A stretch of 64,000 nt of DNA from Mycobacteriales bacterium (GTDB taxonomy: Bacteria; Actinomycetota; Actinomycetes; JAFAQI01), in NCBI GenBank assembly GCA_035550655.1, contig DASZOU010000023.1:26416-90415 (forward strand), given 5' to 3'. Below the pieces are notes generated by a model, which was not told the DNA's origin, did not search any database, and saw only the letters and a list, made by a program, of their open reading frames with translations. Both the position numbers and the translations under genes were made by a program. Positions 29,512 through 60,357 of this stretch are shown one piece after another. How positions within the stretch are numbered: the stretch's first letter is position 1; each line of letters begins with the position of its first letter.

Positions 29512-29546
29512 GGGACCTTCGTCGGTCGAGTCGCGACGAAAGACCG
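29512..29546. promoter_or_regulatory. Two DosR-like boxes upstream of the beta-CASP/ftsH operon
   Basis: GGGACCTTCGTCGG (29512) and GCGACGAAAGACCG (29533), two mismatches each to GGGAC-N-WW-N-G-N-CCC. Confidence 0.5.
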
Positions 29547-29611
29547 TCGTCACGCTGCACCCCCGCCGGAGACGGTGCACTCATGCGAGTCGACCGGCGC
29601 TGGCCGCGACC

Positions 29612-30994
29612 ATGAGCGGGAGCCTCGACTTCCTAGGCGCCGCCGACTGCGTCACCGGAAGCCGGTTCCTCATCCGCTCAGGCGGCGTGGCGCTTCTCGT
29701 CGACTGTGGGCTGTTCCAAGGGCTTCGCGAGCTGCGGCGCCGCAACTGGGACCCGTTCCCCGTGCCGCCCGACAGCATCGACGTCGTCGCAGTCAGCCAC
29801 GCGCATCTCGACCACACCGGGTATCTCCCGGCGCTGGTGCGTGACGGCTTCGCCGGCTCGATCCTCACCACCGAGTACACCGCGCGACTCGCCGAGATCG
29901 TGCTCCACGACAGCGCCCACCTGTTGATGGAGGACACAGAGCACGCGACCAAGCACGGTTACTCCAGGCACGCAGCCCCGCGGCCGCTCTACACCGACGC
30001 CGATGTCACGGCGGCCGTCCGACACTTCCGCACCGTCGACTACTCGACCCCCACCGAGGTCGGCAACGGATTAGCGGTGACGCTCCGCCCAGCCGGCCAC
30101 ATCCTCGGCTCGGCGACGGTGCACGTCACCTCGGCGGGGGGCTCGGTGCTGTTCAGCGGCGACCTGGGCCGCGCGCACCACCCGCTTCTGGAAGCGCCGG
30201 CACCACCGCCAGAATCCGACGTCATCGTCGTGGAGTCGACGTACGGCAACCGCAAGCACCCGGCGGTCGACCCAGCCGACGCCCTCGCCGACGCGGTCAA
30301 CCGAACCGTACGTCGTGGCGGGAGCGTCGTGATCCCCGCGTTCGCGGTCGACCGGACCGAGGTCATCCTCTGCAGCCTGCGCGAGCTACGGGATCGCGGC
30401 GACATCCCTGATGTCCCGATCTACGTCGACAGCCCAATGGCCCTCGACGCTCTCGCGATCTACCGCGACGCAATCCGCAGGCACGCGCCCGGCGTGCGCG
30501 GCGACCTCGATGCCGACGCCGATCCCTTCGACCGCGCGCACATCAACGAGCTCCGGTCAGTGTCGGAGTCGAAGAGCCTCAACGATCCGCAGTGGCCGTG
30601 CATCATCATCTCCGCGTCCGGCATGGTGTCGGGTGGCCGCGTGCTGCATCACCTCGCCGGACTGCTCCCCCGGCAGCAGAACACGGTCGTCCTCGTCGGC
30701 TACCAGGCGATCGGCACGCGTGGTCGCCAGCTGCTCGACGGCGCGCGGGCGATCAAGATCCACGGCGGATATGTGGCGGTTCGCGCAGAGATCGTCGACG
30801 TGCCGATGTTCTCGGTCCACGCAGACGCGGAAGAGATCCTGGCCTGGCTCGGGCAGGCTCCCCGCGCGCCGCACACCTGCTACGTCGTCCACGGCGAGCC
30901 GGCAGCGGCAGCGACTCTGCAGGCCAGGATCTGTGACGAGCTCGGATGGACGGCGGCGGTGCCGCGGCTCGGCGAGCGCGTCCGCCTGACCTGA
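29612..30994 (+). CDS. Metallo-beta-lactamase/beta-CASP RNA-processing nuclease
   Basis: SHAHLDHTG, AGHILGS, FSGDLG, ESTYG, FSVHAD. Confidence 0.9.
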   Translation: MSGSLDFLGAADCVTGSRFLIRSGGVALLVDCGLFQGLRELRRRNWDPFPVPPDSIDVVAVSHAHLDHTGYLPALVRDGFAGSILTTEYTARLAEIVLHDSAHLLMEDTEHATKHGYSRHAAPRPLYTDADVTAAVRHFRTVDYSTPTEVGNGLAVTLRPAGHILGSATVHVTSAGGSVLFSGDLGRAHHPLLEAPAPPPESDVIVVESTYGNRKHPAVDPADALADAVNRTVRRGGSVVIPAFAVDRTEVILCSLRELRDRGDIPDVPIYVDSPMALDALAIYRDAIRRHAPGVRGDLDADADPFDRAHINELRSVSESKSLNDPQWPCIIISASGMVSGGRVLHHLAGLLPRQQNTVVLVGYQAIGTRGRQLLDGARAIKIHGGYVAVRAEIVDVPMFSVHADAEEILAWLGQAPRAPHTCYVVHGEPAAAATLQARICDELGWTAAVPRLGERVRLT

Positions 30995-31041
30995 CTCCCC
31001 CCGCCCAGCACCGAGATTGGGGCCGCGCGACGCCCTGCGTC

Positions 31042-31055
31042 AGGTCCTTCGGCTC
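31042..31055. promoter_or_regulatory. Weak DosR-like box upstream of ftsH
   Basis: AGGTCCTTCGGCTC, three mismatches; close to the site before adh. Confidence 0.3.
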
Positions 31056-31124
31056 TACTGCCTCGCGGCCGGCATGGCATTCGATCGAGGCAGCGGGGCA
31101 ATCGGATGAAAGGCGGATGGCGGC

Positions 31125-33005
31125 ATGGAGGAGTCGACCAAGCCTCCCGCCGAACCCCCTCGGATCACACGACGGGCGAAGGCATCACTCTGGATCGCGG
31201 CGGCGGTGCTCGTGGGCATCGATCTGCTCGCGACCTTCGGCTTGCACTCGACCTCGAGCCGGCTGAGCTACTCGACTTTCCTGTCGCGTGCCGACGCGCA
31301 TCAAGTCGCCAGCCTGACCATCCAGTCGAACGGCTCCGCCTCCGGAAAGCTGGCCGACGGCACCACCTTCTCGACGACGGTGCCGGTGGATCTCGCCGGA
31401 CCGGACCTGATCACTCAGCTGCGCGCGGACGGGGTGGATGTCAGCGCGAGCGCGTCCTCGTCGTCGAGTTGGACCTCGACGCTGCTGGGGTGGCTGTTCC
31501 TCCTCGCACCGATCGCCTTGATCGTGTGGTGGATCCGGTCAGCAGGGCGGCGAGGCGCTGGCCTGCTTGGCGCGGGCGCGATCACCAAGTCGCGCGCAAA
31601 GGTGTTCGACGCGGAGCACCCACGCTCCACCTTCGACGACGTCGCGGGGTACGCCGGGGTGAAGGCGGAGGTCTCCGAGATCGTCGACTTCCTGCGCCAG
31701 CCCGACCGGTACGCCCGGGCGGGAGCGGTGGCACCGCGCGGCGTACTGATGCTCGGACCGCCGGGTACCGGAAAGACCCTCATCGCTCGAGCGGTTGCCG
31801 GCGAGGCGGGGGTGCCGTTCTTCTCTGTCACCGGCTCGAGCTTCGTGGAGATGTTCGTGGGCGTCGGCGCGGCGCGGGTGAGAGACCTGTTCGAGGTCGC
31901 CCGAAAGAACGCTCCCTCGATTGTGTTCGTCGACGAGATCGACGCCATCGGGCAGCGCAGAGCGGGCAGCGGAGCCGTCGTCTCGAACGATGAGCGCGAA
32001 CAGACGCTGAATCAGCTGCTCGCCGAGATGGATGGATTCGATCCGTCCGACGGCGTCGTCGTACTCGCCGCGACCAACCGCCCTGAGGTCCTCGACCTCG
32101 CGCTCGTGCGACCCGGCCGGTTCGACCGGCAGATCACGGTCCCGCTACCCACACAGAGCGATCGGCTCGCGATCCTCGAGGTCCATTGCCGCAGCAAGTC
32201 CCTCGCGGACGACGTGGACCTCGAGGTCGTCGCCCGCGCCACGCCGGGGTTCAGCGGCGCGGATCTGGCGAACCTCGCCAACGAAGCCGCGATCGCGGCC
32301 GCCCGCGACAATCGCACGACACTGTCCAGCACCGACTTCGCCGAGGCCCGGGACCGCATCACGCTGGGCCGCCGCGACGGCAGCAACGTCCTCCTCGCCG
32401 ATGAGAAGTACGCCGTCGCGACCCACGAGTCCGGGCATGCGCTGGTCGCCGCGCTGCTACCCCACGCCGACCCGGTGGAGAAGGTGACGATCCTTCCTGC
32501 CGGCCAGGCGCTCGGTGTGACGCAGCAGCTACCGATCGCCGAGCGCCACCTCTACTCGGAGAGCTACCTGCGTGACGCGCTCGCGGTGCGCCTCGGCGGC
32601 CGAGCAGCTGAGCTCGTGGCGTTGGGTGAGGCATCGACCGGCGCCGCAAACGATCTCGAGCAGGCGACCGACCTAGCCCTCAAGATGGTCCGGGAGTTCG
32701 GCTTGTCCGCCCGGCTCGGACCGGTCGGCTATCCGGCCGGCGGCTCGGTCTTCCTGGGCGGATCCTCCTCGCCGTGGTCGAGCCGGCCGTTCGCGGAACA
32801 GACCCAAGCCGCGATCGACGACGAAGTGGCGCGCCTGCTCCGGGAAGCCGAGCACACGGCGGTCACCGTCCTCGAGTCGCACCGCGAGGAGCTTCGCGCG
32901 CTGACCGACCTGCTGATGGAGCGCGAGACCGTTGACGGATCGGTCATCAGTGATCTGCTTCGCTCACGTGTGACGCGGGGCGCCACGGGTACCGCTGCTG
33001 TATGA
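31125..33005 (+). CDS. ftsH: ATP-dependent zinc metalloprotease FtsH (probably an accessory paralogue)
   Basis: Two TM segments, [26 protein letters not shown]. Confidence 0.93.
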
Positions 33006-33323: not shown

Positions 33324-33548
33324 CTAGGCGAGCGATGAGCTCCAGCGCTCGCTCGCCTGCTGGCGCGGGTTGCCGATGTGCCAGCCACCGCAGCGACGGC
33401 AGAAGTGCGCGGCGAGCATGAAGTCCTCGTCGAAATGACGTCGGCGCGCCATCGCGTACCAAGCCTGCCGGTCGGCTTCGGTGTAGGTGTCGAAGCGCTG
33501 CCGGCCGTCGCAGGTCTCGAGGGTGACGTGGGAAGTGGTGGTACTCAC
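33324..33548 (-). CDS. Small Cys/His (C...CxxC-xx-WH) putative zinc-finger protein, copy 1
   Basis: TCDGRQRFDTYTEA...AHFCRRCGGWHIG; second copy 904 bp away. Confidence 0.75.
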   Translation of the reverse strand: MSTTTSHVTLETCDGRQRFDTYTEADRQAWYAMARRRHFDEDFMLAAHFCRRCGGWHIGNPRQQASERWSSSLA

Positions 33549-33591
33549 GCGTAGTTGATGCCCCGCCGGAAGATCGTTACGCCCCGGCGAC

Positions 33592-34149
33592 CTATCTGGT
33601 CCCCAGCTGCTCCACGAGCTCGTCACAGAACGCCTTCAGGTCGTCAGGCTTGCGCGAGGAGATCAGCACGTTCGGCCCGCCCGTGCACACCGCCACCTCC
33701 TCATCGATCCAGTCCGCCCCGGCGTTGCGCAGGTCAGTCTTTACGCTCGGCCAGCTCGTGATGCGCCGGCCACGAACGACGTCGGCCTCCACAAGCGTCC
33801 AAGGTCCGTGGCAGATCACCGCCACCGGCTTGCCCGCGTCGAAGAAGCCCTTGGCGAACCGGACCGCGTCAGTGCTCATCCGCAGCTGGTCGGGGTTCGC
33901 CACCCCACCCGGAAGGACCAGCGCGTCGTAGTCGTCGACGCGTGCATCGGTGACCGCAACGTCGACCGGAAACGAGTCAGCCTTGTCCAGATGGTTGAAC
34001 GCCTGGGTCTCCCCCGCCTCGGGAGCGACCAGGCGTGGGGTCGCGCCGGCCTGCTCGACCGCCTTCCACGGTTCGGTGAGCTCGACCTGCTCGACGCCTT
34101 CGTTCGCGACCAGAAAGGCCACGGTCTTGCCCGCCAGTGTGTTCGCCAT
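33592..34149 (-). CDS. pfpI: PfpI/DJ-1 family type 1 glutamine amidotransferase-like protein
   Basis: GVEQVEL, LPGGVANPD, AVICHGPW, SRKPDDL. Confidence 0.9.
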   Translation of the reverse strand: MANTLAGKTVAFLVANEGVEQVELTEPWKAVEQAGATPRLVAPEAGETQAFNHLDKADSFPVDVAVTDARVDDYDALVLPGGVANPDQLRMSTDAVRFAKGFFDAGKPVAVICHGPWTLVEADVVRGRRITSWPSVKTDLRNAGADWIDEEVAVCTGGPNVLISSRKPDDLKAFCDELVEQLGTR

Positions 34150-34227: not shown

Positions 34228-34473
34228 CTACGCGAGCGACGCGCTCCAACGTTCGGCGCCCTGCCGGCGCGGGTTGCCGACGTGCCAGCCGTCGCACCGA
34301 CGGCAGAAGTGCGCCGCCAGCATGAAGTCCTCGTCGAAGTGGCGCCTGCGCGCCATCGCGTACCAGGCCTGGCGATCCGCCTCCGGATAGGTGTCGAAGC
34401 GTTGCCGGCCTTCGCACGACTCGACTGACGTCGCCGAAGCGGTGCCCGCGCTTGAGGGGTGCCTGTAGGTCAT
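34228..34473 (-). CDS. Small Cys/His putative zinc-finger protein, copy 2
   Basis: SCEGRQRFDTYPEA...AHFCRRCDGWHVG; own ATG with GGAAGG RBS; 54/63 aa identical to copy 1 over the core. Confidence 0.75.
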   Translation of the reverse strand: MTYRHPSSAGTASATSVESCEGRQRFDTYPEADRQAWYAMARRRHFDEDFMLAAHFCRRCDGWHVGNPRRQGAERWSASLA

Positions 34474-34478
34474 GGTCG

Positions 34479-35283
34479 TTACGCCTTCCCGGGCGCTGTC
34501 GCGCCGCTCGCCTGCATGTAGGGCCAAATCAACGTCGACACGGTTTTCGATGGTGTCGATGCCGTAGGTGAAGGCGGGTCCGTGCGTCAGGACGGCAAGG
34601 AAGTAGCGGCGGCCGTCACCCTTCACGTACGCGATGCTGTTCACCTGCCACCCCCCACCGTGCACGCTGGACAGCGGAACCCACCCGTTCTTGAGAGCCA
34701 CGCTGACGCCCTTCGGGAGACACGGCGCGATTCCCCAGCACTGGCTCTTCGTCACTGACCGCATCAGTCCGAGCTCGAAGCGGCGGTCGCGGGTCGAAAG
34801 CAGATCGTTGGACGACGCGAGCAGGCGCAGCAAGGTCACCTGGTCGGAGGCTGAGGTGCGGGTAAGCCCCCACGACGTACTCGCTGACGTCTCCGACATC
34901 CCGGCCGCTGCATCGAACCGGTCCAGACCGGCGGCGCCGCCGATCTCGCCGTACAAAGCGGACGCGGCGTCGTTGTCCGACTGCTCGATCATCGCCGTCG
35001 ACAAGGTGCGCTGCGCGGCGGACAGGCCGTGGGTCCGATGCAACAAGGCAGCCAGGATGTCGACCTTGACGATGCTCGCGGTGTAGGCCCGCGCGGCAGG
35101 GCGCCAGGTCCACTCCCGGCCGGCCACCGCGTCGTAAACGGCCACGCTGGCAGATCCCTGGCGGCTTGCGAGATAGCGCGCGACGACCTCGTGCAACGAC
35201 GGAGCGGCCGCCCTGGTCGGCGTTAGCCCGCACGAGGCGACCAAGGCGCCAAGAACGACAGCGGCGCACGCTGTTCTGCCCAC
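34479..35283 (-). pseudogene. Secreted class A beta-lactamase-like serine hydrolase with a +1 frameshift near the 3' end
   Basis: Signal peptide, SIVK (SxxK), SDN, KNG; removing one base from the A4 run (34544-34547) restores ...IETVSTLIWPYMQASGATAPGKA-stop at 34479. Confidence 0.7.
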
Positions 35284-35341
35284 GCATCGACTTTCAATGC
35301 CGACCGGGCGTGGCGAATAGTGCCGAATGTCGGGCAGGCCT

Positions 35342-35355
35342 GGGTCGGTCGGCCC
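35342..35355. promoter_or_regulatory. DosR-like box (distal) upstream of ppsA
   Basis: GGGTCGGTCGGCCC followed by TAA. Confidence 0.5.
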
Positions 35356-35459
35356 TAATCACGACGGCAGCGGGCGAGCACCATCGACTCGAAGGAGTCG
35401 CAGTGCGGAGGAGCCTCATCGACGACCCCGCCGCGTGCCGCGTCGCCAACGTCGCGGTT

Positions 35460-35473
35460 GGGACCTTCTCCCC
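35460..35473. promoter_or_regulatory. DosR-like box (proximal) upstream of ppsA
   Basis: GGGACCTTCTCCCC, one mismatch, 35 nt before ATG. Confidence 0.6.
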
Positions 35474-35508
35474 TGGCGAGTGACGGCAGCCGGGCGCATC
35501 GTCGGGCC

Positions 35509-37791
35509 ATGACTGGCGGATCAGTGCGGCCGTTCTCCGAGTTGCGTGTGACGGATGTCGAAGTCGCCGGCGGCAAGGGCGCGAATCTCGGCGAGCTGAC
35601 AGCCGCGGGCCTGCCGGTGCCGCCTGGCTTCGTCATCACCGGGCAGGTGTTCCTCGACGCGTTGGACGAGGCAGGCGTCAGGCAGGACCTGCAAGACCTC
35701 TGCGCGGGCGTGCATCCGGACGACCCCCATGAGCTCCAAGCACGCGCGGAGGAGATGCAGTTACTCGTTCACAAGGCACGCGTGCCGGATTCCACTCGGG
35801 ATGCCATTCTTACCGCCTACCACGATCTCGGCCGCGACTGCCTGGTCGCGGTTCGTTCCTCAGCCACCGCCGAGGACACCGCCGGCACGTCGTTCGCGGG
35901 CATGAACGAGACCTTCACCAACGTGCGCGGCGACGCCGAGCTGCTTGCGCGGATCGTCGACTGCTGGGCGTCGTTGTACGCCGCGCGGGTCGTGACCTAC
36001 CGCGCCAGCCAGGGAATGACGGCCGAGCCGGTACTCGCGGTCGTCGTGCAGCGGATGGTCGACTCGGAGCGCTCGGGCGTGATGTTCACGACCGACCCGA
36101 CAACGGGTGACCCCCGCCATCTCGTCATCGAGGCGGCCTTCGGACTGGGTGAGGTCGTCGTCTCCGGTCAGGTCGAGCCCGACACCTACGTCGTCGACAA
36201 GGCAGGCCCGCGAATCCTGTCGGCCAGGGTGGGAACGAAGTCGTTCAAGCTGGTTCGCGGCAAGGAACACGGCAACCGTCGCATCGACCTTCCGGCGAAG
36301 AAGTCAGGCGCCCGGGTGCTCGACGACAGCGAAGTCCTGGCTGTCGCCCAACTGGGGCTTCGCATCGCCGAGCACTACGGCGATCCCCAGGATGTCGAGT
36401 GGGCGATCGAGAACGGCCAGTACTGGATCGTCCAGTCGCGACCCATCACGACCTTGGACGACGCCGCACTTGCCGACCCCGCCGCAGCAGCCGTCGCGTT
36501 GCTCACAGGTATGCCCGCCGCGCCTGGTCTGGCGACCGGCAAGGTGCGGATCCTGCGCAGCCCGGCGGAAGGCGACCAGCTGGTCGCCGGCGAGGTGCTG
36601 GTCGCTCCGATGACCAACCCGGACTGGCTGCCGACGATGCGGCGGGCGGCCGCGCTCGTGACGGACGGCGGCGGCATGACCTGTCACGCGGCCGTGGTGG
36701 CTCGTGAGCTGCGGGTTCCGTGCATCGTGGGTGCGCGAAAGGCGACGTCGGTCTTGCGCGACGGCGAGCTCGTCACGGTGGACGGCGGCACCGGGCAGGT
36801 GTTCCCGGGAGCGTTGCCGGCGGTGCGGGTGACCGAGCAGCCGACCTCGCCCGTGCCGGCCGGGCCGGCGGCGGAGACGATCGGCACGAAGCTGTACGTC
36901 AACATCGCGACCCCCGAGCATGCTGGGGAGGTCAGCCATCAAGCCGTGGACGGCGTCGGGCTGCTGCGGGCCGAGGTCATGCTCACCGACGCGCTCGGCG
37001 GCGTGCATCCCCGCGAGCTCATGGCCCGCGGCGAGAGCGAGACCTTCGTCAGCTCGCTCACCGAGTCCCTGCTGCAGATCACCAGGGCCTTCTTCCCTCG
37101 GCCCGTGATCTACCGCAGCACAGACTTCCGCACGAACGAGTTCCGCGGCCTTGAAGGTGGCGCTGCCTACGAGCCCGTGGAGGCGAACCCCATGATCGGC
37201 TTTCGTGGCTGCTATCGCTACGTGCGTGATCCGGAGATGTTCCGTCTCGAGCTCGCCGCACTCAGCCGCGTCAGGGAGGAGACGCCGAACCTGCACCTGA
37301 TGATCCCGTTCGTGCGCACGCGTTGGGAGCTCGAGGCCTGCCTGGAACTGGTCGACGCGAGCCCACTCGGGTCACACCGCGACCTGCACCGGTGGGTCAT
37401 GGCAGAGGTCCCGTCGGTCGTCTACCGCATCGCCGACTACGCAGCGATGGGAATCGACGGGGTGTCCATCGGGTCGAATGACCTGACGCAGCTGATGCTC
37501 GGCGTCGACCGCGACTCGGAGACCTGCGCCGAGCTGTTCCGGGAGAGCGACGCCGCTGTCCTCGCTGCGATCGAGGCGATCATCGCCGCGAGCCGGGAGG
37601 CGGGCATCACGTCCTCGCTGTGCGGCCAGGCTCCGAGCAACGACCCCGACTTCGCGGCTCACCTGGTCCGGATGGGGATCACCTCGATCTCCGTCACCCC
37701 CGACGCAGTCGACCGCACCCGCCACGCGATCGCTGCCGCGGAGCGACGGCTTCTGCTCGACGCTGCGCGTCCGCTCGTTCACCCGGGGTGA
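35509..37791 (+). CDS. ppsA: Phosphoenolpyruvate synthase (pyruvate, water dikinase)
   Basis: [33 protein letters not shown] phospho-His, [19 protein letters not shown]. Confidence 0.93.
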
Positions 37792-37801
37792 CGAAAGTCC
37801 C
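37788..37801. promoter_or_regulatory. DosR-like box upstream of the patatin-PFOR operon
   Basis: GTGACGAAAGTCCC; two differences from the M. tuberculosis core GGGACTAAAGTCCC. Confidence 0.65.
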
Positions 37802-38703: not shown

Positions 38704-39404
38704 CCCCGCGCAGCAGCCAGGCGATCCGGACCTCCGCGCCGCCAATCAGGACCAACGCCCCTGTCCGGACCGGCCGCCTTACAACCACGATCGAGAGCGT
38801 GACCGAGAGCACGCTCGCGCTGGCGACGCGGACCTTCGAGGTGCGCATCCACGGCCGCGGCGGTCAGGGCGCCGTGAGCGCGGCCGAGCTGTTGTCGATT
38901 GCCGCGTTCGACAGCGCCCGCGTCGCCCAGGCCTTCCCCAGCTTCGGTTCGGAACGCTCCGGCGCGCCGGTGGCAGCCTTCTGCCGGATCTCCGACCGGC
39001 CGATCCGTTCCCGCGAGCCGATCGTCGCACCCGATGCGGTGATCGTTCTCGATCCGACGCTGCTCACGGCCGTCGATGTCTTCCAGGGCCTGAAGCTCGG
39101 CGGAGTCGCCCTCGTGAACTCGGTCAAGGCTCCTGAAGAGCTCGGCCTCGGCGACCTCACGGAGTCCCGGCGCGCGGCGCATGTGATGTGCGTGCCCGCG
39201 ACGGAGATCGCAGTGCGGCAGATCGGCCGACCGGTTCCGAACGGCGTGATGCTCGGCGGCTTCTCCGCTCTTACTCAGGTCGTGCCGCTCAGCGGCATTC
39301 AGCAAGCACTCATGGACCGATTCCCCGGCCGCATCGGCACCGCGAACGCGGCAGCGGCCGGCGAGGCGTTCGAGATCGTGACGAACAAGCTGCGGGACCA
39401 CTGA
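38700..39404 (+). CDS. porC: Pyruvate/2-oxoacid:ferredoxin oxidoreductase gamma subunit
   Basis: EVRIHGRGGQG, SFGSERSGAPV, NGVMLG; start may be later (GTG ~38799). Confidence 0.88.
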   Translation: MTPRSSQAIRTSAPPIRTNAPVRTGRLTTTIESVTESTLALATRTFEVRIHGRGGQGAVSAAELLSIAAFDSARVAQAFPSFGSERSGAPVAAFCRISDRPIRSREPIVAPDAVIVLDPTLLTAVDVFQGLKLGGVALVNSVKAPEELGLGDLTESRRAAHVMCVPATEIAVRQIGRPVPNGVMLGGFSALTQVVPLSGIQQALMDRFPGRIGTANAAAAGEAFEIVTNKLRDH

Positions 39405-43264: not shown

Positions 43265-43278
43265 GGGACCTTCGCCCT
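43265..43278. promoter_or_regulatory. DosR-like box upstream of the 100-aa hypothetical gene
   Basis: GGGACCTTCGCCCT, one mismatch. Confidence 0.55.
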
Positions 43279-43368: not shown

Positions 43369-43671
43369 ATGTCCGGAATGCTGATCAGCATCGATATCGA
43401 CGAGGCCAGCGACAGCTGGGGGTTCGTCGGCGTGGTCAAGGTAGGCGAAGCCGAGGCGTACCGAACCCTGGAGGCGTTTCCATCGGTCTCCGGGGCCGAG
43501 GAGCATGCGCAGGCACTTGTCGCTGGAGTGCTCGGCGAGCTTCTCGCCGGTCAGGAGTGGCGCCACGTCAAAGAGTCCAAGCCCCATGACGGGGCACCCA
43601 CGCGCAAGGACTTTCGACTGGGCTCCTTGTTCCGTCAGGAGACCCCTGTCAGCCGTTCAGCACTACCTTGA
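43369..43671 (+). CDS. Hypothetical 100-aa protein
   Basis: GGGGAGG RBS, globular-looking composition, upstream DosR-like box. Confidence 0.6.
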   Translation: MSGMLISIDIDEASDSWGFVGVVKVGEAEAYRTLEAFPSVSGAEEHAQALVAGVLGELLAGQEWRHVKESKPHDGAPTRKDFRLGSLFRQETPVSRSALP

Positions 43672-44689
43672 GGGCGCCGGAGTTGGCCGCGTCACCGAAC
43701 GTGTCGTAGGCCGCCTCGATGTCGGAGAGCGCGAAGCGGTGCGTCGCGAATGCCGAGGTGTCGAGGTGTCCCGCGCGCAGCAGCCCGAGCAGCTTGGGCG
43801 TGCTGAACGTGTCGACGAGGCCGGTCGTGATCGTCACGTTCTTGATCCACAGCGACTCGAGCGCCAGGGTGGCCGACTTGCCATGGACACCGATGTTGGC
43901 GACTCGACCGCCCGGACGGATCAGCTGGGTGCACAGCTCGAAGCTCTCTGGCACTCCGACCGCCTCGATGGCGACGTCCGCCCCGAGCCCCTCTGTGAGG
44001 ACGTCGATCCGCTCCCGCACGTCGTCGGTGGTGGAGTTGATCACGATGTCGGCACCGAAATGCTTGGCCATCTCCAGTCGCGCATCGGCGAGGTCAACCA
44101 TGATCACGTGCAGCGGGCTGAACAGCCTCGCCGTCATCGCCGCCGCGAGCCCGATCGGGCCGGCTCCGACGATCACAACGGTGTCAGCCGGAGCTACGTG
44201 GCCCTTGAGGACGCCGACCTCGTACGACGTCGGCAAGATGTCCGAGAGCATGACCGCTTGCTCACCGGAGGCACCTGCTGCCAACCGGTAGGTCGAGGTC
44301 TCGGCGAACGGCACTCGCACGTATTCGGCCTGGGTGCCGTCGATGAGGTGACCGAGCACCCAACCGCCGCCGCCGAGGCACTGTCCGTACATCGCCTCGC
44401 GGCAGTATCTGCACCGTCCGCATGAGCTGATGCACGACACCAGGACCCGGTCACCGGGCTGAACGCCGGTCACTGCGCTGCCGATCGCTTCGACCACGCC
44501 GACGGCTTCGTGGCCGAGGATGCGGCCACGCTCGACCTCGGGCACGTCCCCCTTGAGGATGTGCAGGTCGGTGCCGCAGATGGTCGTCGTCTCGACCTTG
44601 ACGATCGCGTCCGTCGCGTCCTGAATCATGGGATCGGGCATCTCGCGCCACGCGCGGCGCCCCGGGCCGTCATAGACAAGTGCATGCAT
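43649..44689 (-). CDS. Zinc-dependent alcohol dehydrogenase (MDR family)
   Basis: ICGTDLH, GHEAVG, CGRCRYCREAMYGQC, GAGPIG. Confidence 0.92.
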   Translation of the reverse strand: MHALVYDGPGRRAWREMPDPMIQDATDAIVKVETTTICGTDLHILKGDVPEVERGRILGHEAVGVVEAIGSAVTGVQPGDRVLVSCISSCGRCRYCREAMYGQCLGGGGWVLGHLIDGTQAEYVRVPFAETSTYRLAAGASGEQAVMLSDILPTSYEVGVLKGHVAPADTVVIVGAGPIGLAAAMTARLFSPLHVIMVDLADARLEMAKHFGADIVINSTTDDVRERIDVLTEGLGADVAIEAVGVPESFELCTQLIRPGGRVANIGVHGKSATLALESLWIKNVTITTGLVDTFSTPKLLGLLRAGHLDTSAFATHRFALSDIEAAYDTFGDAANSGALKVVLNG

Positions 44690-44724
44690 GGCTTCAGTGC
44701 AGACCCAGGCTGATTCACCGGGTA

Positions 44725-44738
44725 GAGCCGAAGGTCCC
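44725..44738 (-). promoter_or_regulatory. DosR-like box upstream of adh
   Basis: Minus strand GGGACCTTCGGCTC, one mismatch, 35 nt before ATG. Confidence 0.6.
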
Positions 44739-44808: not shown

Positions 44809-44938
44809 AGGTCACATCTGGTCGCCCGGGTCCATCGGCCCTATTCTCCGGGACTGAACGCGCGTGATCATCCACCCGATGGTCGACATCTGTCGGCCTG
44901 CAGAGTCGGTAAGACGAACCGAACGGAGAGTCACAGCA

Positions 44939-51544: not shown

Positions 51545-52540
51545 TCACGCCCTCCCGACCAGCCGGCAGAGGTCGACGAGGCGTGAGGTGTAACCGAACT
51601 CGTTGTCGTACCACCCGAACACCTTCACCAGCTCGCCGTTGGCCTGGGTCAGCGTCGAGTCGAACACGCACGACGCCGGATCCCCCACGACGTCTCGCGA
51701 GACGATCGGCCGGTCGGTGAAACGCAGGATTCCGGCCAGCGGTCCGGCCGCTGCTACCGCGAGGGCCTCGTTGACCTCCTCCACCGTCACCTCACGGTGA
51801 AGCAGCAAGGCGAGGTCGGTCAGCGATCCGTCCTCAACCGGAACCCGAACCGCGACGCCGTCGAGCTTGCCCGCGAGCGACGCGATGACGAGACCTGTGG
51901 TTCGGGCGGCCCCGGTCGACGTCGGAATGATGTTCACCGCCGCGCTCCGGCCGCGGCGAAGGTCTTTGTGGGGCCCGTCGAGGACCACCTGGTCGTTCGT
52001 GTAGCCGTGGATCGTGGTCATGAACCCCTTGACGATGCCGAAGGCGTCGTCGATGACCTTCACCATCGGTGCGACGCAGTTCGTCGTGCACGACGCGTTG
52101 GAGATGACGTCGTGCATCGCCGGGTCGTACGACGCGTCGTTCACCCCCATGACGACGGTGAGGTCCACACCCTTGCCGGGAGCCGAGATCAGCACTTTCC
52201 GGGCGCCCGCGTGCAGGTGCGCTGCGGCGTCGTCCCGCGCACGGAACTTGCCGGTCGACTCGATCACGATGTCTGCGCCGACACCAGCCCAGTCGAGCTT
52301 GGAAGGGTCCCGCTCCGCCGTAGCCGCCACCTTGCGACCGTCGATGATGATCGCCGAGTCGGCGTAGCCGATGTCGCGGGCGTACCTGCCGTACGTCGAG
52401 TCGTACTCGAGCAGATGAGCCATGGTCCGCGTGTCGATGAGGTCGTTCACAGCAACGACTTCGATCTCGTTCTCGTCGACGGCCCGCAGAAAGCCGCGAC
52501 CGATTCGCCCGAACCCGTTGATGCCCACCCGAATGCTCAT
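51545..52540 (-). CDS. gap: Type I glyceraldehyde-3-phosphate dehydrogenase (probably an accessory copy)
   Basis: GINGFGRIG, SNASCTTNC, WYDNE. Confidence 0.95.
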   Translation of the reverse strand: MSIRVGINGFGRIGRGFLRAVDENEIEVVAVNDLIDTRTMAHLLEYDSTYGRYARDIGYADSAIIIDGRKVAATAERDPSKLDWAGVGADIVIESTGKFRARDDAAAHLHAGARKVLISAPGKGVDLTVVMGVNDASYDPAMHDVISNASCTTNCVAPMVKVIDDAFGIVKGFMTTIHGYTNDQVVLDGPHKDLRRGRSAAVNIIPTSTGAARTTGLVIASLAGKLDGVAVRVPVEDGSLTDLALLLHREVTVEEVNEALAVAAAGPLAGILRFTDRPIVSRDVVGDPASCVFDSTLTQANGELVKVFGWYDNEFGYTSRLVDLCRLVGRA

Positions 52541-52586: not shown

Positions 52587-52686
52587 TGGCGTTTTGTCCC
52601 GTGGCCCTGGTAGAGCCATTGGTCCTGACGTCGTGTGATCTGCTCGGCCAGCCGCGTCCAGCGTGCGAGTTCGTGACGAAGGGCCC
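52587..52686. promoter_or_regulatory. Cluster of DosR-like boxes between gap and the three-helix ORF
   Basis: GTGACGAAGGGCCC (52673, one mismatch); minus AGGACCAATGGCTC (52613); weaker minus GGGACAAAACGCCA (52587). Confidence 0.55.
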
Positions 52687-56863: not shown

Positions 56864-57241
56864 TCACCAGCCGCGGGATCGCGCCCGCAACGCCGCAGCG
56901 ACCATGGTGACGGCGACCAGCCCACAGACCAGCTGCAACCAGCTCAGCCCGACATACGGGATCTGGACGAGGAGCTCGACGCCGAGCAACCCCGAAGCGG
57001 CCAACACCGCGGGCGGCATGAGCCGGCTGCCACGGAGCGCAGCAACGGAGGCGACGAGCGATGGCACGGCGACTGTGGCGATCAGCCAGAGCCCCGGCAG
57101 CGTCCAGTCCGACCACCCGAACGGCAGGCTGTCACGCGGCGGCGTTGCCACGCCCGCGATCAGCTGCGCCGCACCGATCGCTCCAGCCATCGCCATGAAG
57201 CCCTCGACCGCGACGATCGATCGGCGGTAGGGGCGGCGCAT
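56864..57241 (-). CDS. Small integral membrane protein
   Basis: About four hydrophobic segments; 7 nt downstream of the flavodoxin stop. Confidence 0.65.
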   Translation of the reverse strand: MRRPYRRSIVAVEGFMAMAGAIGAAQLIAGVATPPRDSLPFGWSDWTLPGLWLIATVAVPSLVASVAALRGSRLMPPAVLAASGLLGVELLVQIPYVGLSWLQLVCGLVAVTMVAAALRARSRGW

Positions 57242-57248
57242 GATGCCG

Positions 57249-57788
57249 TCACCCCACAAGAACTCGCTCACGAGCGCGCTCAGCCAGCCGCTTGCCCCAG
57301 GACCGGGCGCGTTCTAGCTCACCCGCTCGTAGCTGCTCGTGGTGGTCGACGTAGAAGCTCGTCGGGTGAGCCAGCAGCTCGGCGCCGGAGCGGCGCAGCC
57401 GTCGCGCCACGTGCCGGGCGGGATGCCCGGTGATCCACGCAGGTGGCCGGAAGCGGGTGTCGTAGGTGGCCGCAGTCACCTGCACCTTCGCGGGCAGGGT
57501 CGCCAGCCATTCGCGCACGCCGGTCGATGCCGCGGAGGGGTCGACCTCTTGGTCGTCACCCGGCACGTGCGCCGACGCGATGGCCACCTTGCGGGTGCCC
57601 ACTCGCGGCAGACCGTGAGCATGGGTGGGCGAACCGACGATCAGCACGTCCGCCGCGGCGAGCGTCTGCCGGTCCAGCTGCGAGATCGGCAGCACCGTGA
57701 CGGAGTCGGCCTCGAACCCTTCCGCGATCGCCTGAGCGAGCGACCGGGTGTGGCCATACATCGACTCGAACGCCACGACGACTCGCAT
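57249..57788 (-). CDS. Flavodoxin-like protein 1
   Basis: FESMYGHT phosphate loop, GSPTHAHG, ATYDTR; AGGAGG RBS. Confidence 0.85.
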   Translation of the reverse strand: MRVVVAFESMYGHTRSLAQAIAEGFEADSVTVLPISQLDRQTLAAADVLIVGSPTHAHGLPRVGTRKVAIASAHVPGDDQEVDPSAASTGVREWLATLPAKVQVTAATYDTRFRPPAWITGHPARHVARRLRRSGAELLAHPTSFYVDHHEQLRAGELERARSWGKRLAERARERVLVG

Positions 57789-57844
57789 CGCTCCTCCTCG
57801 ATGTCCTCTGCAGCCACGGTTACATCGCCGGCGCGAACAGAGCA

Positions 57845-57918
57845 GAGTCCTTCGTCCTGATTTCACCGGCCGCACGCCTCGAGAGTCCGAGGTCGCGGAA
57901 AGCAGTGACCAAAGCACC
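57845..57918. promoter_or_regulatory. Two DosR-like boxes between divergent flavodoxin and P-type ATPase
   Basis: Minus AGGACGAAGGACTC (57845) and GTGACCAAAGCACC (57905), two mismatches each. Confidence 0.45.
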
Positions 57919-57953
57919 TGTCCGATCCGGGCCGGAGCAGATGCACTCAGGTC

Positions 57954-60338
57954 GTGAGCGCCGCTTCGACTCAGGCGCGGGCGACGCCTGCCGCCCCGGC
58001 AGAGGTGCACGGGCTGTCCGATGCGGAAGTGGCGCTGCGGCTCGCGGCCGGGCGCGACAACACCGTGACGATTGGCTCGAGCCGCAGCCTCGCGGCAATC
58101 CTGCGCAGCAACGTCCTCACCGTCTTCAACGCGATCCTGCTCACGTTGTTCGGCCTCACGCTCGCGACCGGGCGCTGGCAGAACGCGCTGTTCGGCTTGG
58201 TGATCGTCGCCAACGTGGTGCTCGGGGTCACGCAGGAGATCAGGGCGAAACGAACACTCGACCGGCTGACGGTTCTCACCGCTCCCCGCGCGCGGGTTCG
58301 GCGATCCGGCGTCATCCGCGAGATCGACCGCGAGGCGGTGGTCCTCGACGACCTGCTCGTAGTCCGCCCGGGCGACCAGGTCGTCGCGGATGCCGTGGTG
58401 GTGCGAGAGACCGGTCTGGAGATCGACGAGTCGCTCTTGACCGGTGAGGCGGAGCCGGTCGCCAAACGGTACGGCGACGAGGTGCGTTCCGGCGCATTCG
58501 TCGTGGCCGGGTCGGGAGAGTGCCGCGTCGTCCGGGTCGGCGCGGACGGCTACTCGGCTCGGCTTTCCGCCGAGGCAAGACGATTCTCGGTTGCGCCCTC
58601 CGAGCTCGTCACCGGCACCAACCGGCTGCTGCGATGGATTGCCGCGTTGATGCTCCTGGTCGGCCCGCTGCTGCTGGTAGGGCAGCTCGCAAGCCCGGAC
58701 AACAAGAGCTGGCGGCAGTCCGTCACGGGCATGACGGCTGCCCTCGTCGGCATGGTGCCCGAAGGACTTGTGCTGCTGACCACCGTGGCCTTCACCGTGG
58801 GTGTCCTGGCGCTCGCGCGGCGTCGCATCCTCGTCCAGGAGCTCCCGGCGGTCGAGGGGCTGGCTCGCGTCGATGTGCTGTGCATCGACAAGACCGGAAC
58901 CCTGACCGACGGCGATCTCGCGGTGTCGGAGGTCGACGTCTGCGACGGAGTCGATGCTGGCGATGTACCAGCCGCGCTCGCCCTGCTCGCCGCCGGCGAG
59001 GACGCGAACGCGACGGCCCGAGCGATTGCGGTCCGATATCCGGCGAGCGCATGGCGGGCAGAGCATCGCTGGCCGTTCTCGTCACAGCGCAAGTGGTCGG
59101 CCGTGACGGCCGCGGAGCACGGCAGCTGGGTCCTCGGCGCGCCTGAGGTGCTCCTCCCCCATGTCGACTCAACCGTTGCAGCGTCGCTTTCCGATCGGGT
59201 GGCGCAGATCGCGACCGCAGGCCATCGTGTGCTGCTCCTGACCGCCGGTCCGAGGCCGCCCACCGAGCAGGGACTCGTCGCAGCGATGCGACCAGCAGCC
59301 CTCCTCACCCTCACCGAGCACATCCGCGAGGACGCCGCATCGACTCTCGCGTTCTTCGCCGACCAGGGCGTACGGATCAAGGTCATCTCGGGAGACAACC
59401 CGGTAACGGTTGCTGCCGTCGCCGTTGCTGCCGGGCTGGCAGGCGCCGAAGCGCCGGGGATCGACGCGCGGACGCTTCCCACCGACCCCGCCGAGCTCGG
59501 CGAGGTCGTCGATCAGGCGGTCATCATCGGACGTACGACGCCGCACCAGAAACGCGACCTGGTGCGCGCCCTCCAGCAACGCGGTCACGTCGTGGCGATG
59601 ACCGGCGACGGCGTGAACGACTTGCTTGCTCTCAAGGACGCCGACGTCGGGATCGCGATGGCCGGCGGAGCGCCGGCGACCCGTGGCGTCGCACAGCTGG
59701 TCTTGATGGACAACCGCTTCGCCTCGCTGCCGCACGCCGTCGCGGAAGGCCGGCGGGTGATCGCGAACATCGAGCGCGCGAGCAACCTCTTCCTCGTCAA
59801 GAACGCGTATTCAATCGTCCTGGCGATCTGCTCGACGGCAAGCTTGTTGGCCTATCCGCTCGAGCCGATCCAGCTCACGATGGTGTCGACGTTGACCATT
59901 GGGCTCCCCGGCCTGTTCCTGGCGTTCGTGCCGAACAACCGTCGCTACCAGCCGGGCTTCCTGCGTCGCGTCCTCAGGTTCTCGATGCCGATGGGGCTGG
60001 TCGTCGGGATCACGACCTACGGCGCGTACTGGACGACCCGCGGCGTGGAGCCTGCGGCAACCGCCGCAGACGCGCGGACAACCGCGACCATCACGGCTTT
60101 GCTCGTCTCACTCGGCGTACTCACCGCGTTGATCCGTCCGCTCAGCCGATGGCGTCGGCTGCTGGTGGCTGCGCTCGCCGGGCTCGCCGCGCTGATCGTT
60201 GCGGTGCCGGCGTTGGGGCACTCCGTCTTCCTGCTCGACGTGACGCCGAGCCGGGTCCTGATTGCGGTCGGAGTCGCCGGCGTGGGGCTGGCCGGGATCG
60301 AGGCGCTCCGCAGATGGGCGATGGCGTCGAACCGCTGA
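57954..60338 (+). CDS. Cation-transporting P-type ATPase (CtpE-like)
   Basis: LTGEA, MVPEGL, DKTGTLT, SGDN, MTGDGVND. Confidence 0.92.
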   Translation: MSAASTQARATPAAPAEVHGLSDAEVALRLAAGRDNTVTIGSSRSLAAILRSNVLTVFNAILLTLFGLTLATGRWQNALFGLVIVANVVLGVTQEIRAKRTLDRLTVLTAPRARVRRSGVIREIDREAVVLDDLLVVRPGDQVVADAVVVRETGLEIDESLLTGEAEPVAKRYGDEVRSGAFVVAGSGECRVVRVGADGYSARLSAEARRFSVAPSELVTGTNRLLRWIAALMLLVGPLLLVGQLASPDNKSWRQSVTGMTAALVGMVPEGLVLLTTVAFTVGVLALARRRILVQELPAVEGLARVDVLCIDKTGTLTDGDLAVSEVDVCDGVDAGDVPAALALLAAGEDANATARAIAVRYPASAWRAEHRWPFSSQRKWSAVTAAEHGSWVLGAPEVLLPHVDSTVAASLSDRVAQIATAGHRVLLLTAGPRPPTEQGLVAAMRPAALLTLTEHIREDAASTLAFFADQGVRIKVISGDNPVTVAAVAVAAGLAGAEAPGIDARTLPTDPAELGEVVDQAVIIGRTTPHQKRDLVRALQQRGHVVAMTGDGVNDLLALKDADVGIAMAGGAPATRGVAQLVLMDNRFASLPHAVAEGRRVIANIERASNLFLVKNAYSIVLAICSTASLLAYPLEPIQLTMVSTLTIGLPGLFLAFVPNNRRYQPGFLRRVLRFSMPMGLVVGITTYGAYWTTRGVEPAATAADARTTATITALLVSLGVLTALIRPLSRWRRLLVAALAGLAALIVAVPALGHSVFLLDVTPSRVLIAVGVAGVGLAGIEALRRWAMASNR

Positions 60339-60343
60339 GGGCC

Positions 60344-60357
60344 GGGACTTCCGGCCC
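60344..60357. promoter_or_regulatory. DosR-like box upstream of flavodoxin 2, inside a palindrome that could also terminate the ATPase transcript
   Basis: GGGACTTCCGGCCC within AGGGCCGG-GACTT-CCGGCCCT. Confidence 0.5.

Follow-up and report, generated by a model that had tools for sequence, protein, structure and literature searches.

DosR-type boxes before energy and stress genes of an uncultured soil actinobacterium: a probable new example of a known hypoxia regulon

The closest described systems are the DosR (DevR) regulons of mycobacteria and the OsdR regulon of Streptomyces. The tgs1 promoter of Mycobacterium tuberculosis has its primary box at -42.5 and its secondary box at -63.5 (PMC3177182). 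The OsdR consensus is AGGGCCGATCGGCCCT, with sites at -80 to -100 in Streptomyces coelicolor, where targets include an alcohol dehydrogenase and pyruvate phosphate dikinase (PMC5069765). DosR-controlled clusters of Mycobacterium smegmatis contain a PEP synthase and a cation P-type ATPase, and this PEP synthase, a demonstrated product of the DosR regulon (bioRxiv 10.1101/2023.09.11.557286), is up 23- to 70-fold in hypoxia (PMC2799521; bioRxiv 10.1101/2023.09.11.557286).

Here, we analyzed a 64,000-nucleotide stretch of DNA (the window) from an uncultured soil actinobacterium, for which an earlier note had proposed a dispersed DosR/DevR-like hypoxia regulon read from 12 boxes. It is well supported that the window contains approximately 15 DosR-type boxes located before energy and stress genes, and that these represent a new example of a known hypoxia regulon. 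The window sequence was present only in soil DNA runs.

Intergenic enrichment of the motif

The 14-mer on which the earlier note was based (GGGACNWWNGNCCC) had no exact match in the window. Allowing one mismatch gave 13 strand matches compared with 5.3 ± 2.6 in shuffled sequences (13 was reached in 1 of 100 shuffles), and allowing two gave 91 compared with 72 ± 10. By itself, this pattern is weak evidence; the location of the matches is decisive. A 20-bp palindromic matrix was trained exclusively on other genomes, from 29 sites preceding their ppsA, gap, and adh orthologues, with no window sequence included, and matches were accepted at ≥7.5 bits. Intergenic DNA (6.3 kb) contained 12 such matches versus 1.24 ± 1.13 in mononucleotide shuffles, none of 300 of which reached 12. 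Coding DNA (58.5 kb) contained eight, making the intergenic density about 14 times the coding density. All 12 intergenic matches fell within 29.4–61 kb, that is, in one half of the window. The intergenic DNA of positions 1–29.4 kb (2.8 kb) contained none, in agreement with the earlier note, which saw no box before the core or zinc genes. Control loci of similar G+C content (25 actinobacterial loci, ~230 kb around unrelated P-type ATPase genes) yielded only nine matches of ≥10 bits, a low background. A Gibbs sampler applied blind to the full set of 25 intergenic segments settled three times on the motif of the matrix and chose the same boxes. A test for enriched 6-mers returned mainly AT-rich words.

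The consensus of the window boxes, TCRGGACCTTCGGCTC, is asymmetric and degenerate. Its GGGAC half is well conserved and mostly on the gene-distal side, and the weaker, promoter-proximal half (GGCTC or GCCCC) is followed by T. None of the window boxes is a perfect GGGAC-N4-GTCCC, and the best scores 15.7 bits, compared with 19–25 bits in an Acidimicrobiaceae island. The earlier observation is confirmed: all 12 boxes previously reported are present at the positions given, although two (29533 and 57905) are weak by score. The earlier list lacked the two strongest boxes (44828 and 38748) and a weak one (31042).

Boxes, promoters and the genes they precede

Among 127 non-redundant strong boxes in relatives, an ANNNT element occurs at offset 24 in 73 and at offset 25 in 25 (together ~77%), with about four boxes at each other offset. 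These promoters lack a recognizable -35 element and have a weak -10 element at a fixed distance from the box. As ANNNT lies 24–25 nt 3' of the box, the box is therefore expected near -42.5, as in M. tuberculosis. This canonical spacing of ANNNT is seen at seven window boxes, with four of the predicted starts ≤2 nt from a start codon, and is missing at six. For ppsA, porG, the ABC-transporter binding protein gene, and the short open reading frame (ORF) upstream of the beta-CASP gene, the start codon coincides with the predicted beginning of the transcript, which makes these transcripts look leaderless. Box conservation extends to orthologous genes across Actinobacteria for the beta-CASP gene, ppsA, the pyruvate:ferredoxin oxidoreductase (PFOR) operon, a 100-aa ORF, adh, and gap.

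The beta-CASP promoter has a distal Dev-type box (29512..29525, GGGACCTTCGTCGG, 7.8 bits), which is kept in both sister genomes (GGGACCTTCGGCCC and AGGACCTTAGTCCG). A proximal, cryptic box is located 21 bp 3' of it (29533..29546, GCGACGAAAGACCG); it scores low (5.3 bits), yet CGAC-AAAGAC-GTCG is kept in a three-way alignment with the two sister genomes. This spacing equals that of the tgs1 primary and secondary boxes, and the pair is positioned at -43.5 and -64.5 from ATG 29583, compared with -42.5 and -63.5 at tgs1. ANNNT at offset 25 from the proximal box predicts a transcription start at ~29582, adjoining the ATG of a plus-strand 10-codon ORF (29583..29615, MRVDRRWPRP), the TGA of which overlaps ATG 29612 of the beta-CASP gene. 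The beta-CASP start codon of both sister genomes aligns with ATG 29583, which is out of frame with the beta-CASP gene in the window because of a 26-nt insertion relative to one sister genome (L162; 17 nt relative to the other, L163). The short ORF is a putative leaderless uORF. Boxes also precede the beta-CASP orthologues of Nocardioides, Isoptericola, and Leifsonia loci, at -75 to -95. Downstream on the plus strand are genes for the beta-CASP metallo-beta-lactamase nuclease (29612-30994) and an FtsH paralogue (31125-33005), both assigned by Pfam and NCBIfam. The weak box before ftsH (31042..31055, AGGTCCTTCGGCTC, 6.6 bits) was also picked by the blind Gibbs sampler, and three other beta-CASP loci have a strong box directly 3' of the beta-CASP gene, where the next gene is not ftsH. 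We have low confidence that it is a genuine element of the set.

The divergent region between a beta-lactamase-like gene and ppsA contains a box at 35342..35355 (GGGTCGGTCGGCCC, 9.7 bits), with ANNNT at offset 24 on the plus side (predicted start near 35390); which of the two genes it serves is uncertain. The ppsA promoter box (35460..35473, GGGACCTTCTCCCC, 10.3 bits) is centered 42.5 nt before ATG 35509, and an alignment showed that it is kept, together with its CATCGT -10 element, in the usp-ppsA promoter of a sister genome. Boxes with at most one mismatch occur within 300 bp upstream of 25 of 80 ppsA loci versus ~3 expected from the overall match density, and none of the approximately 10 myxobacterial ppsA loci examined had one upstream. 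The gene itself (35509..37791, plus strand) encodes PEP synthase (NCBIfam NF005057, 811 bits versus a cutoff of 598). A box over its stop codon (37788..37801, GTGACGAAAGTCCC, 8.0 bits), 111 nt before a patatin-like gene, has no canonically spaced -10 element, and our confidence in it as a functional site is medium to low.

Before porG, a newly detected box (38748..38761, AGGACCAACGCCCC, 15.4 bits) is centered 44.5 nt before GTG 38799, with ANNNT at offset 25 (predicted start ~38797). In ten Acidimicrobiia loci, a box is found at this distance as well (-425 to -535 relative to the alpha subunit), and box conservation was also found in the porG/gap divergent region. The plus-strand genes porG (38799-39404), porA (39401-40606), and porB (40603-41607) are followed by a gene for a GltD-like NAD(P) flavoprotein (~41700-43232, plus strand) with a C-terminal PorD-type ferredoxin domain. 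NCBIfam matches in this gene group include PorC_KorC (188 bits versus a cutoff of 81), PRK12771 (712 bits versus a cutoff of 516), and PorD (residues 452-506). The next box (43265..43278, GGGACCTTCGCCCT, 11.9 bits) precedes the conserved 100-aa ORF (43369-43671). In sister genome L163, the orthologue of this ORF lies among different genes and is preceded by a 15.1-bit box at -102.5.

The box of adh, a minus-strand Zn-dependent alcohol dehydrogenase gene (43649..44689, Pfam), lies at 44725..44738 (minus strand GGGACCTTCGGCTC, 12.6 bits), and an orthologue in a related locus (L064) has a perfect box at -135. Its center is 42.5 nt before ATG 44689, so adh may also be leaderless, though TGCACT, rather than NANNNT, occupies the -10 position. 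The strongest box of the window (44828..44841, GGGTCCATCGGCCC, 15.7 bits) precedes the ABC-transporter binding protein gene; from ANNNT at offset 25, transcription is predicted to begin at ~44877, adjoining the in-frame ATG 44879, and an orthologue (L059) has a two-mismatch box at -23. The gap box (52613..52626, minus strand AGGACCAATGGCTC, 9.1 bits) is centered 79.5 nt before ATG 52540 of a solitary type I GAPDH gene (51545..52540, minus strand; TIGR01534, 410 bits versus a cutoff of 367). With ANNNT at offset 25, the predicted start is ~52577, and seven related loci have a homologous box (GGGACCTTTGGCAC or GGGACCGATGGCAC, then TAC) at -89 to -95. A box 65 nt before an 87-aa ORF (52745-53008) is located at 52673..52686 (GTGACGAAGGGCCC, 9.8 bits); canonical -10 spacing is missing here, and we regard it as a functional site with medium to low confidence.

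Flavodoxin-like gene 1 (57249..57788, minus strand; 179 aa by translation) is a paralogue of flavodoxin-like gene 2 and is followed by a membrane ORF (56864-57271); in the plain ORF list it is masked by a longer antisense ORF. On the minus side of its box (57845..57858, minus strand AGGACGAAGGACTC, 11.3 bits), ANNNT follows at offset 24 and predicts a start at ~57810; the 22 nt from there to ATG 57788 include a GAGGAGG ribosome-binding site. A weak box (57905..57918, GTGACCAAAGCACC, 5.7 bits) is centered 42.5 nt before GTG 57954 of a Type II/III cation P-type ATPase gene (57954..60338, plus strand; Pfam, NCBIfam) and has a 3.5-bit partner 22 bp upstream and TGCACT at the -10 position. It has no orthologous support, and confidence in its function is low. 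The box of flavodoxin-like gene 2 (60344..60357, GGGACTTCCGGCCC, 11.0 bits) has TGCAAT 24 nt downstream. This plus-strand gene (60417..60959; Pfam Flavodoxin_1, Flavodoxin_5) was given a revised start at ATG 60417, which is preceded by GGAGG. Homologues of its product adjoin beta-CASP genes in three related loci (L090, L091, and L093), two of which (L091 and L093) also contain DosR genes.

The predicted regulator and alternative readings

The boxes are probably sites for a DosR/DevR (OsdR)-type response regulator of the NarL family encoded outside the window. On the proposed mechanism, the regulator would be phosphorylated, probably upon low oxygen or redox stress, and its dimer would bind the imperfect palindrome. 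Centered ~42–44 nt upstream of the transcription start, the box would substitute for a -35 element, and the bound dimer would recruit RNA polymerase to the weak -10 element (NANNNT). The induced set would include PEP synthase, a four-subunit PFOR whose ferredoxin subunit is fused to an NAD(P)-linked flavoprotein, an alcohol dehydrogenase, two flavodoxin-like proteins, a spare GAPDH, the beta-CASP nuclease with the FtsH paralogue, and probably the P-type ATPase and an ABC importer.

It is unlikely that these are genuine regulatory sites of another LuxR/NarL-type or otherwise dimeric factor that shares the GGGAC-N4-GnCCC preference and whose inducing signal might be neither oxygen nor redox state. 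Such a reading would fit the asymmetric, degenerate consensus, the absence of classical DosR hallmark genes from the window, and the lack of a DosR or DosS gene there, which the earlier note had also observed: tblastn with DevR (query identical to PDB 3C3W) and Pfam scans detected neither, the best tblastn match being a receiver-only protein (E = 0.004). Nor was DosR found in ~40 kb walked on two sister contigs. However, DosR orthologues 49–86% identical to DevR adjoin the same box-bearing genes (ppsA or beta-CASP) in nine related loci. In six aligned orthologues, the LAEKTVKNY recognition helix is unchanged except for K-to-H in L064 and V-to-I in L069, and all six retain K179, K182, and N183. 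The motif also equals experimentally bound DevR and OsdR sites, a USP gene shares the ppsA promoter in a sister genome, and in M. smegmatis, PEP synthase has been demonstrated to belong to the DosR regulon.

Chance matches in 69% G+C DNA, with only two or three functional boxes and no dispersed regulon, would account for how common the loose pattern is (with up to two mismatches, as above; related loci contain GGGACNNNNGTCCC, with up to one mismatch allowed, roughly every 8 kb) and for the boxes at 37788, 52673, 57905, and 31042, which have neither comparative support nor a canonically spaced -10 element. We consider this very improbable given the intergenic density and the shuffling results, the confinement of every intergenic match to one half of the window, the conservation of at least seven boxes before orthologues, and the discovery of the motif by the blind sampler. 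There is an equally slight chance that the boxes are operators from which a DosR-like protein blocks RNA polymerase until released. A box at about -42 overlaps the -35 region and could also suit a repressor, but a weak -10 at a fixed distance from the box without a recognizable -35 is an activator-dependent layout, DevR and OsdR act as activators from sites so placed (PMC3177182; PMC5069765), and PEP synthase of M. smegmatis rises in hypoxia. A dispersed DosR/DevR-like regulon, as first proposed, is the best-supported reading, based on the motif match, conservation, DosR orthologues in related loci, and -10 spacing.

Pfam scans detected none of the hallmark DosR genes (USP, Acg nitroreductase, HspX, and Tgs) in the window. 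The gene content is less foreign to mycobacterial regulons than the earlier note stated, since DosR is already known to target a PEP synthase and a P-type ATPase in M. smegmatis; the OsdR targets of S. coelicolor, among them an alcohol dehydrogenase and pyruvate phosphate dikinase, point the same way. A tandem in-phase pair of boxes, required in M. tuberculosis for full induction, is found at one window promoter only. The system is not a new kind, and its motif matches both the experimentally defined DevR box, whose core the earlier note had recognized, and the OsdR box of Streptomyces.

Intergenic boxes in the window

The window has a G+C content of 65–71%, and its first 28 kb hold housekeeping genes in mycobacterial gene order (prfA, rho, thrC, hom, lysA and argS), followed after the argS block by zinc-uptake genes, an aldehyde dehydrogenase and a P450. 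The region from 29.5 to 61 kb contains genes for a beta-CASP nuclease and for a paralogue of FtsH; pfpI with a beta-lactamase-like gene and a pair of small Cys/His ORFs; PEP synthase (ppsA) and a patatin-like lipase; a porG, porA, porB operon with a GltD-like NAD(P) flavoprotein; a conserved 100-aa ORF (orf100, 43369–43671), a Zn alcohol dehydrogenase (adh), an ABC importer and an L,D-transpeptidase; and a solitary GAPDH (gap), two flavodoxin-like paralogues and a P-type ATPase. The window ends with furA and katG. The nearest genomes found are two soil MAGs labelled Mycobacteriales bacterium, with identities to the window of 91–92% for the P450, 79–81% for the beta-CASP nuclease and 85% (in one of the two genomes) for PEP synthase, and the sequencing runs containing the window sequence were of soil metagenome DNA only.

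The boxes considered here are 14-bp DosR/DevR-type (Dev) palindromes, each named by its first position. All 12 boxes listed in the earlier note were present where it placed them, and the observation of boxes in the window is confirmed. The 14-mer consensus offered with them fared less well, as it has no exact copy in the window and is weak evidence by itself: on both strands, 13 matches with at most one mismatch were found versus 5.3 ± 2.6 in shuffles, and 91 versus 72 ± 10 with at most two mismatches. To guard against circularity, a 20-bp palindromic matrix was trained with 29 sites, all from other genomes, that precede orthologues of ppsA, gap and adh. Scanned with this matrix, the window had 12 of its best 17 matches in intergenic DNA, which makes up <10% of its length. 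The motif is enriched over shuffled background: 12 intergenic matches reached at least 7.5 bits versus 1.24 ± 1.13, and 0 of 300 shuffles reached 12. The 58.5 kb of coding DNA held eight matches at this threshold. None of the 12 intergenic matches fell within the 2.8 kb of intergenic DNA in the half with the core and zinc genes, where the earlier note had seen none; all lay within 29.4–61 kb. As a control, 25 loci that surround unrelated ATPase genes in actinobacteria and resemble the window in G+C (~230 kb in all) gave only nine matches of at least 10 bits.

A Gibbs sampler run without a prior on all 25 intergenic segments of the window returned the same box in reverse complement, GAGACGWTGGTCCYGA, from sites at 29510, 31040, 37788, 38746, 43263, 44725, 52613 and 57845. 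Overall, the box core (two inverted GGGAC half-sites, 4 nt apart) was found at 15 places in promoter regions, 12 of them scoring at least 7.5 bits. The top scores belong to two boxes that had not been listed before, 44828 (15.7 bits) and 38748 (15.4 bits); a further unlisted box, 31042, is weak. There are no perfect copies in the window, the promoter-proximal half being degenerate. A comparison of 6-mers in intergenic and coding DNA was underpowered and dominated by AT-rich words, with CCTTCG at 13 versus 4.8.

Recurrence of this kind could also stem from a mobile repeat (REP or MITE). This reading was rejected because the sharing stops at the 14–16 bp core and the flanks differ. Separately, a 10-bit match inside the ppsA coding region (37468–37487) is kept in a sister genome (locus L162, 18931–18950), and is most simply explained by coding-sequence conservation rather than as a site.

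The island is shuffled among close relatives (loci L082/L163 and L083/L162 of the sister genomes, compared with 29–52 kb of the window), and boxes move along with their genes. In L082/L163, ftsH is followed directly by orf100, a neocarzinostatin-like gene and ABC/FtsX genes, and the ppsA-por-adh-ABC block is missing; in L083/L162, the beta-CASP gene adjoins usp-ppsA and ftsH is missing. The two small Cys/His ORFs (33324–33626 and 34228–34473, minus strand) are alike and lie on either side of pfpI, the upstream one in frame with the beta-lactamase-like ORF (34228–35283). The 74-aa homologue is a separate gene in both sister genomes, divergent to a DosR-type box.

Promoter geometry and conservation before orthologous genes

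Spacing was analyzed for 127 non-redundant strong boxes from related loci, using both flanks of each. ANNNT, the core of a -10 element, followed the box by 24 nt in 73 of the 127 and by 25 nt in another 25 (98/127 together), with about four cases at each other offset. If the -10 hexamer occupies -12 to -7, the box is centred at -42.5 or -43.5, matching the primary Dev box of M. tuberculosis tgs1 (-42.5; its secondary box lies at -63.5, PMC3177182). Judging from this spacing, the boxes would lie about 42 nt upstream of the predicted start, in place of a -35 element.

Seven boxes in the window have the 24–25 nt spacing to ANNNT, and six do not. At four of the seven, the predicted start lies beside a start codon: box 29533 (start ~29582, ATG 29583), box 35460 (~35508, ppsA ATG 35509), box 38748 (~38797, porG GTG 38799) and box 44828 (~44877, in-frame ATG 44879 of the binding protein). 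These four promoters therefore look leaderless. The predicted start from box 52613 (~52577) would give gap a leader of 37 nt, that from the minus side of box 57845 (~57810) would give flavodoxin 1 a leader of 22 nt with GAGGAGG, and the plus side of box 35342 points to a start at ~35390. The adh and ATPase boxes are each centred 42.5 nt 5' of the start codon, and the flavodoxin-2 box lies ~66 nt 5' of ATG 60417. In general, the GGGAC-like half points mostly away from the gene, and the degenerate proximal half is followed by T. The hexamer TGCA(C/A)T occurs 23–24 nt after the box at adh (44701–44706), the ATPase (57942–57947) and flavodoxin 2 (60382–60387), and may be a variant -10 or chance; elsewhere the pattern is NANNNT.

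A clear tandem pair (21 bp apart, in phase and conserved) was seen at the beta-CASP promoter only, formed by boxes 29512 and 29533. A weak partner exists at 57883/57905, and a search at ±21 bp left one recognizable box at each remaining promoter. For cooperative binding, DevR requires a minimum of two neighboring boxes that are in helical phase, ~21 bp apart (PMC3177182). Secondary Dev sites in M. tuberculosis are often cryptic.

Boxes recur before orthologues of several of the window's genes. Among 80 ppsA orthologue loci, 25 had a box (at most one mismatch) within 300 bp upstream versus ~3 expected from overall density (181 matches in 1.53 Mb); these boxes concentrate ~80 nt 5' of the start codon, and the myxobacterial ppsA loci had none upstream. 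The window ppsA promoter can be aligned with that of the usp-ppsA operon in a sister genome, with the box GGGACCTT and the CATCGT -10 kept and the spacer diverged. Acidimicrobiaceae loci have porG and gap in divergent orientation with one or two boxes between them; these stand at -425 to -535 relative to the alpha subunit gene and at about -90 from gap, which agrees with the window. Both beta-CASP boxes are kept in two sister genomes, and boxes occur at -75 to -95 before the beta-CASP orthologues of Nocardioides, Isoptericola and Leifsonia. The orf100 orthologue of a sister genome carries a 15.1-bit box at -102.5 although its neighbor genes differ. For the P-type ATPase, the best match compared was 50% identical, and only one of 25 actinobacterial loci had a box upstream.

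Several gene-level features were also observed around these promoters. In L162 (16364–16975), the box and ppsA are separated by a gene for a universal stress protein of 141 aa; in the window (35284–35508), usp is missing and ppsA stands directly on the same predicted leaderless promoter. A 26-codon ORF with the ribosome-binding site GAAGGAG (35403–35483) precedes ppsA. Right after the ancestral beta-CASP start codon, the window has an insertion of 26 nt relative to L162 (17 nt relative to L163), such that the ancestral ATG now starts a 10-codon ORF (29583–29615), and its TGA and the new ATG share bases in the sequence ATGA. Either an assembly error or a leaderless uORF coupled in translation to the nuclease gene may account for this. 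The divergent adh/ABC-transporter region contains, between its two boxes, three identical copies of the 15-bp unit CCGATGGTCACGGAA (44764–44808), which may be cryptic half-sites or may form an operator array for another regulator, specific to the transporter. Because flavodoxin 1 (57249–57788, minus strand) makes up the 3' portion of an open frame of 605 codons antisense to the ATPase, plain ORF lists do not show it. The ORF at 38564–39136 was rejected as the oxidoreductase gamma subunit, having no Pfam match; the right frame is 38799–39404. At ~41700–43232, a PorD-type 2x[4Fe-4S] ferredoxin subunit is fused to the C terminus of the GltD-like NAD(P)-binding flavoprotein (matches to NCBIfam PRK12771 and PorD), which suggests that the 2-oxoacid oxidoreductase is linked to NAD(P) and similar to phenylglyoxylate dehydrogenase.

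A candidate regulator and a possible shared function

No regulator was found in the window by tblastn with DevR (query matching PDB 3C3W across all 217 residues) and no DosS/DosT-type GAF/haem kinase by Pfam, which bears out the earlier remark that neither DosR nor DosS is encoded there. Pfam likewise detected none of the hallmark genes (USP, Acg nitroreductase, alpha-crystallin, Tgs), which are typical and not strictly defining, in the 64 kb, and ~40 kb walked along two sister contigs contained no DosR. The DevR query did identify orthologues (49–86% identical) in nine fetched loci, adjoining ppsA or beta-CASP and flavodoxin homologues, from Mycolicibacterium, Acidimicrobiia, Microbacterium, Leifsonia and uncultured lineages. 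Across six aligned orthologues, the only changes in the recognition helix LAEKTVKNY are K-to-H (L064) and V-to-I (L069), and Lys179, Lys182 and Asn183, which reportedly touch the GGGAC half-site, are kept in all six. The DevR dimer reads G4G5G6A7C8T9 (PMC3177182). The dispersed DosR/DevR-like regulon proposed in the earlier note is thus supported by the motif enrichment, by conservation before orthologues and by the DevR-type regulators in loci of relatives. At the level of sequence, this supports reading the window boxes as sites of a DosR/DevR-type regulator, which would be encoded outside the window.

Among the dormancy switches of M. tuberculosis, DosR has received the most study, and to our knowledge its regulon in environmental relatives is known from few cultured species only. 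The window and related loci would place the same switch before a partly different, conserved gene set in uncultured soil actinobacteria, comprising a pyruvate:ferredoxin oxidoreductase operon, PEP synthase, a second GAPDH, alcohol dehydrogenase, flavodoxin-like proteins and the beta-CASP nuclease with the FtsH paralogue. We tentatively raise the possibility, which we consider rather doubtful, that the box-bearing genes belong to a single conserved carbon module for low oxygen, which a DosR-type regulator would switch on as a unit in lineages from Acidimicrobiia to Mycobacteriales. The module would comprise PorGAB with the NAD(P)-linked flavoprotein-ferredoxin fusion, PEP synthase, the spare GAPDH, alcohol dehydrogenase and flavodoxin-like carriers. 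Were this so, obligately aerobic soil actinobacteria could send pyruvate along two routes, one fermentative and linked to ferredoxin or NAD(P), the other driven by ATP and leading to gluconeogenesis or storage. The PEP synthase of M. smegmatis, so far unexplained despite its massive induction by hypoxia, would then gain a concrete role. The co-regulated beta-CASP nuclease and FtsH would then represent an undescribed arm of RNA and protein turnover in dormancy. Apart from this possibility, the gene set supplies candidate DosR/OsdR regulon members for M. smegmatis or Streptomyces, and the constant distance from box to -10, with the predicted leaderless starts, makes it simple to predict promoters of this type in metagenome-assembled genomes.

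Comparison with known DosR-type systems

A regulon of this kind is already known, and no new regulatory principle is revealed. With the M. tuberculosis DevR/DosR regulon (Park 2003; Chauhan et al. 2011, PMC3177182), the window shares the inverted GGGAC half-site pair with its 4-nt spacer and, going by the predicted starts, a proximal box centred near -42.5; the beta-CASP tandem pair (-43.5/-64.5) is arranged like that of tgs1 (-42.5/-63.5). A cation P-type ATPase is among the targets in M. tuberculosis (ctpF) and probably in the window. The base after CCC is T in the window, compared with an S-A-A flank in the M. tuberculosis consensus. Unlike in M. tuberculosis, most window promoters show a single recognizable box, the window has no USP, Acg, HspX or Tgs gene, and the putative targets are mainly central-carbon and electron-carrier genes.

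M. smegmatis belongs to the same order as the window organism, and both are environmental. Two reports (PMC2799521; bioRxiv 10.1101/2023.09.11.557286) place its DosR clusters at msmeg_3926-3955 and msmeg_5241-5246, and describe hypoxic induction of the PEP synthase MSMEG_3934 (23-fold in mRNA, ~70-fold in protein), strong hypoxic induction of a cation P-type ATPase belonging to a DosR cluster, and upregulation of a ferredoxin-dependent 2-oxoacid oxidoreductase. PEP synthase and a cation P-type ATPase are common to the window and these clusters. Unlike the clusters, the window lacks hydrogenase, USP and devR/devS genes; conversely, PorGAB with the GltD-PorD fusion, the spare GAPDH, beta-CASP/FtsH and the flavodoxin-like proteins are not given as cluster members in the passages compared. 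In the literature compared, a limited sample and not proof of novelty, beta-CASP/FtsH, PorGAB with GltD-PorD, the spare GAPDH and the flavodoxins are not described members of such regulons.

In S. coelicolor, OsdR (SCO0204), encoded in the stress island SCO0167-SCO0219, recognizes a 16-nt consensus, A-GGGCC-N4-GGCCC-T (AGGGCCGATCGGCCCT), at sites -47 to -158 from start codons, and binds before a Zn alcohol dehydrogenase operon and pyruvate phosphate dikinase in addition to acting on developmental genes (Urem et al. 2016, PMC5069765). The window boxes resemble this consensus, including the T straight after CCC, and box 44828 (GGGCCGATGGACCC, minus strand) and box 35342 come close to it. GGGCC half-sites are preferred in Streptomyces, whereas those in the window are mostly GGGAC or AGGAC, and pyruvate phosphate dikinase is the target in S. 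coelicolor where the window has PEP synthase. The earlier note had described the gene content as differing from the mycobacterial regulon. This holds against M. tuberculosis, but the hypoxia-induced genes of M. smegmatis (PEP synthase, P-type ATPase and the oxidoreductase) and the OsdR targets of S. coelicolor overlap the putative targets in the window, and the difference is therefore only partly true for the group. The comparison supports an ancestral origin for the control of pyruvate and PEP metabolism by DosR-type regulators, as opposed to a mycobacterial oddity.
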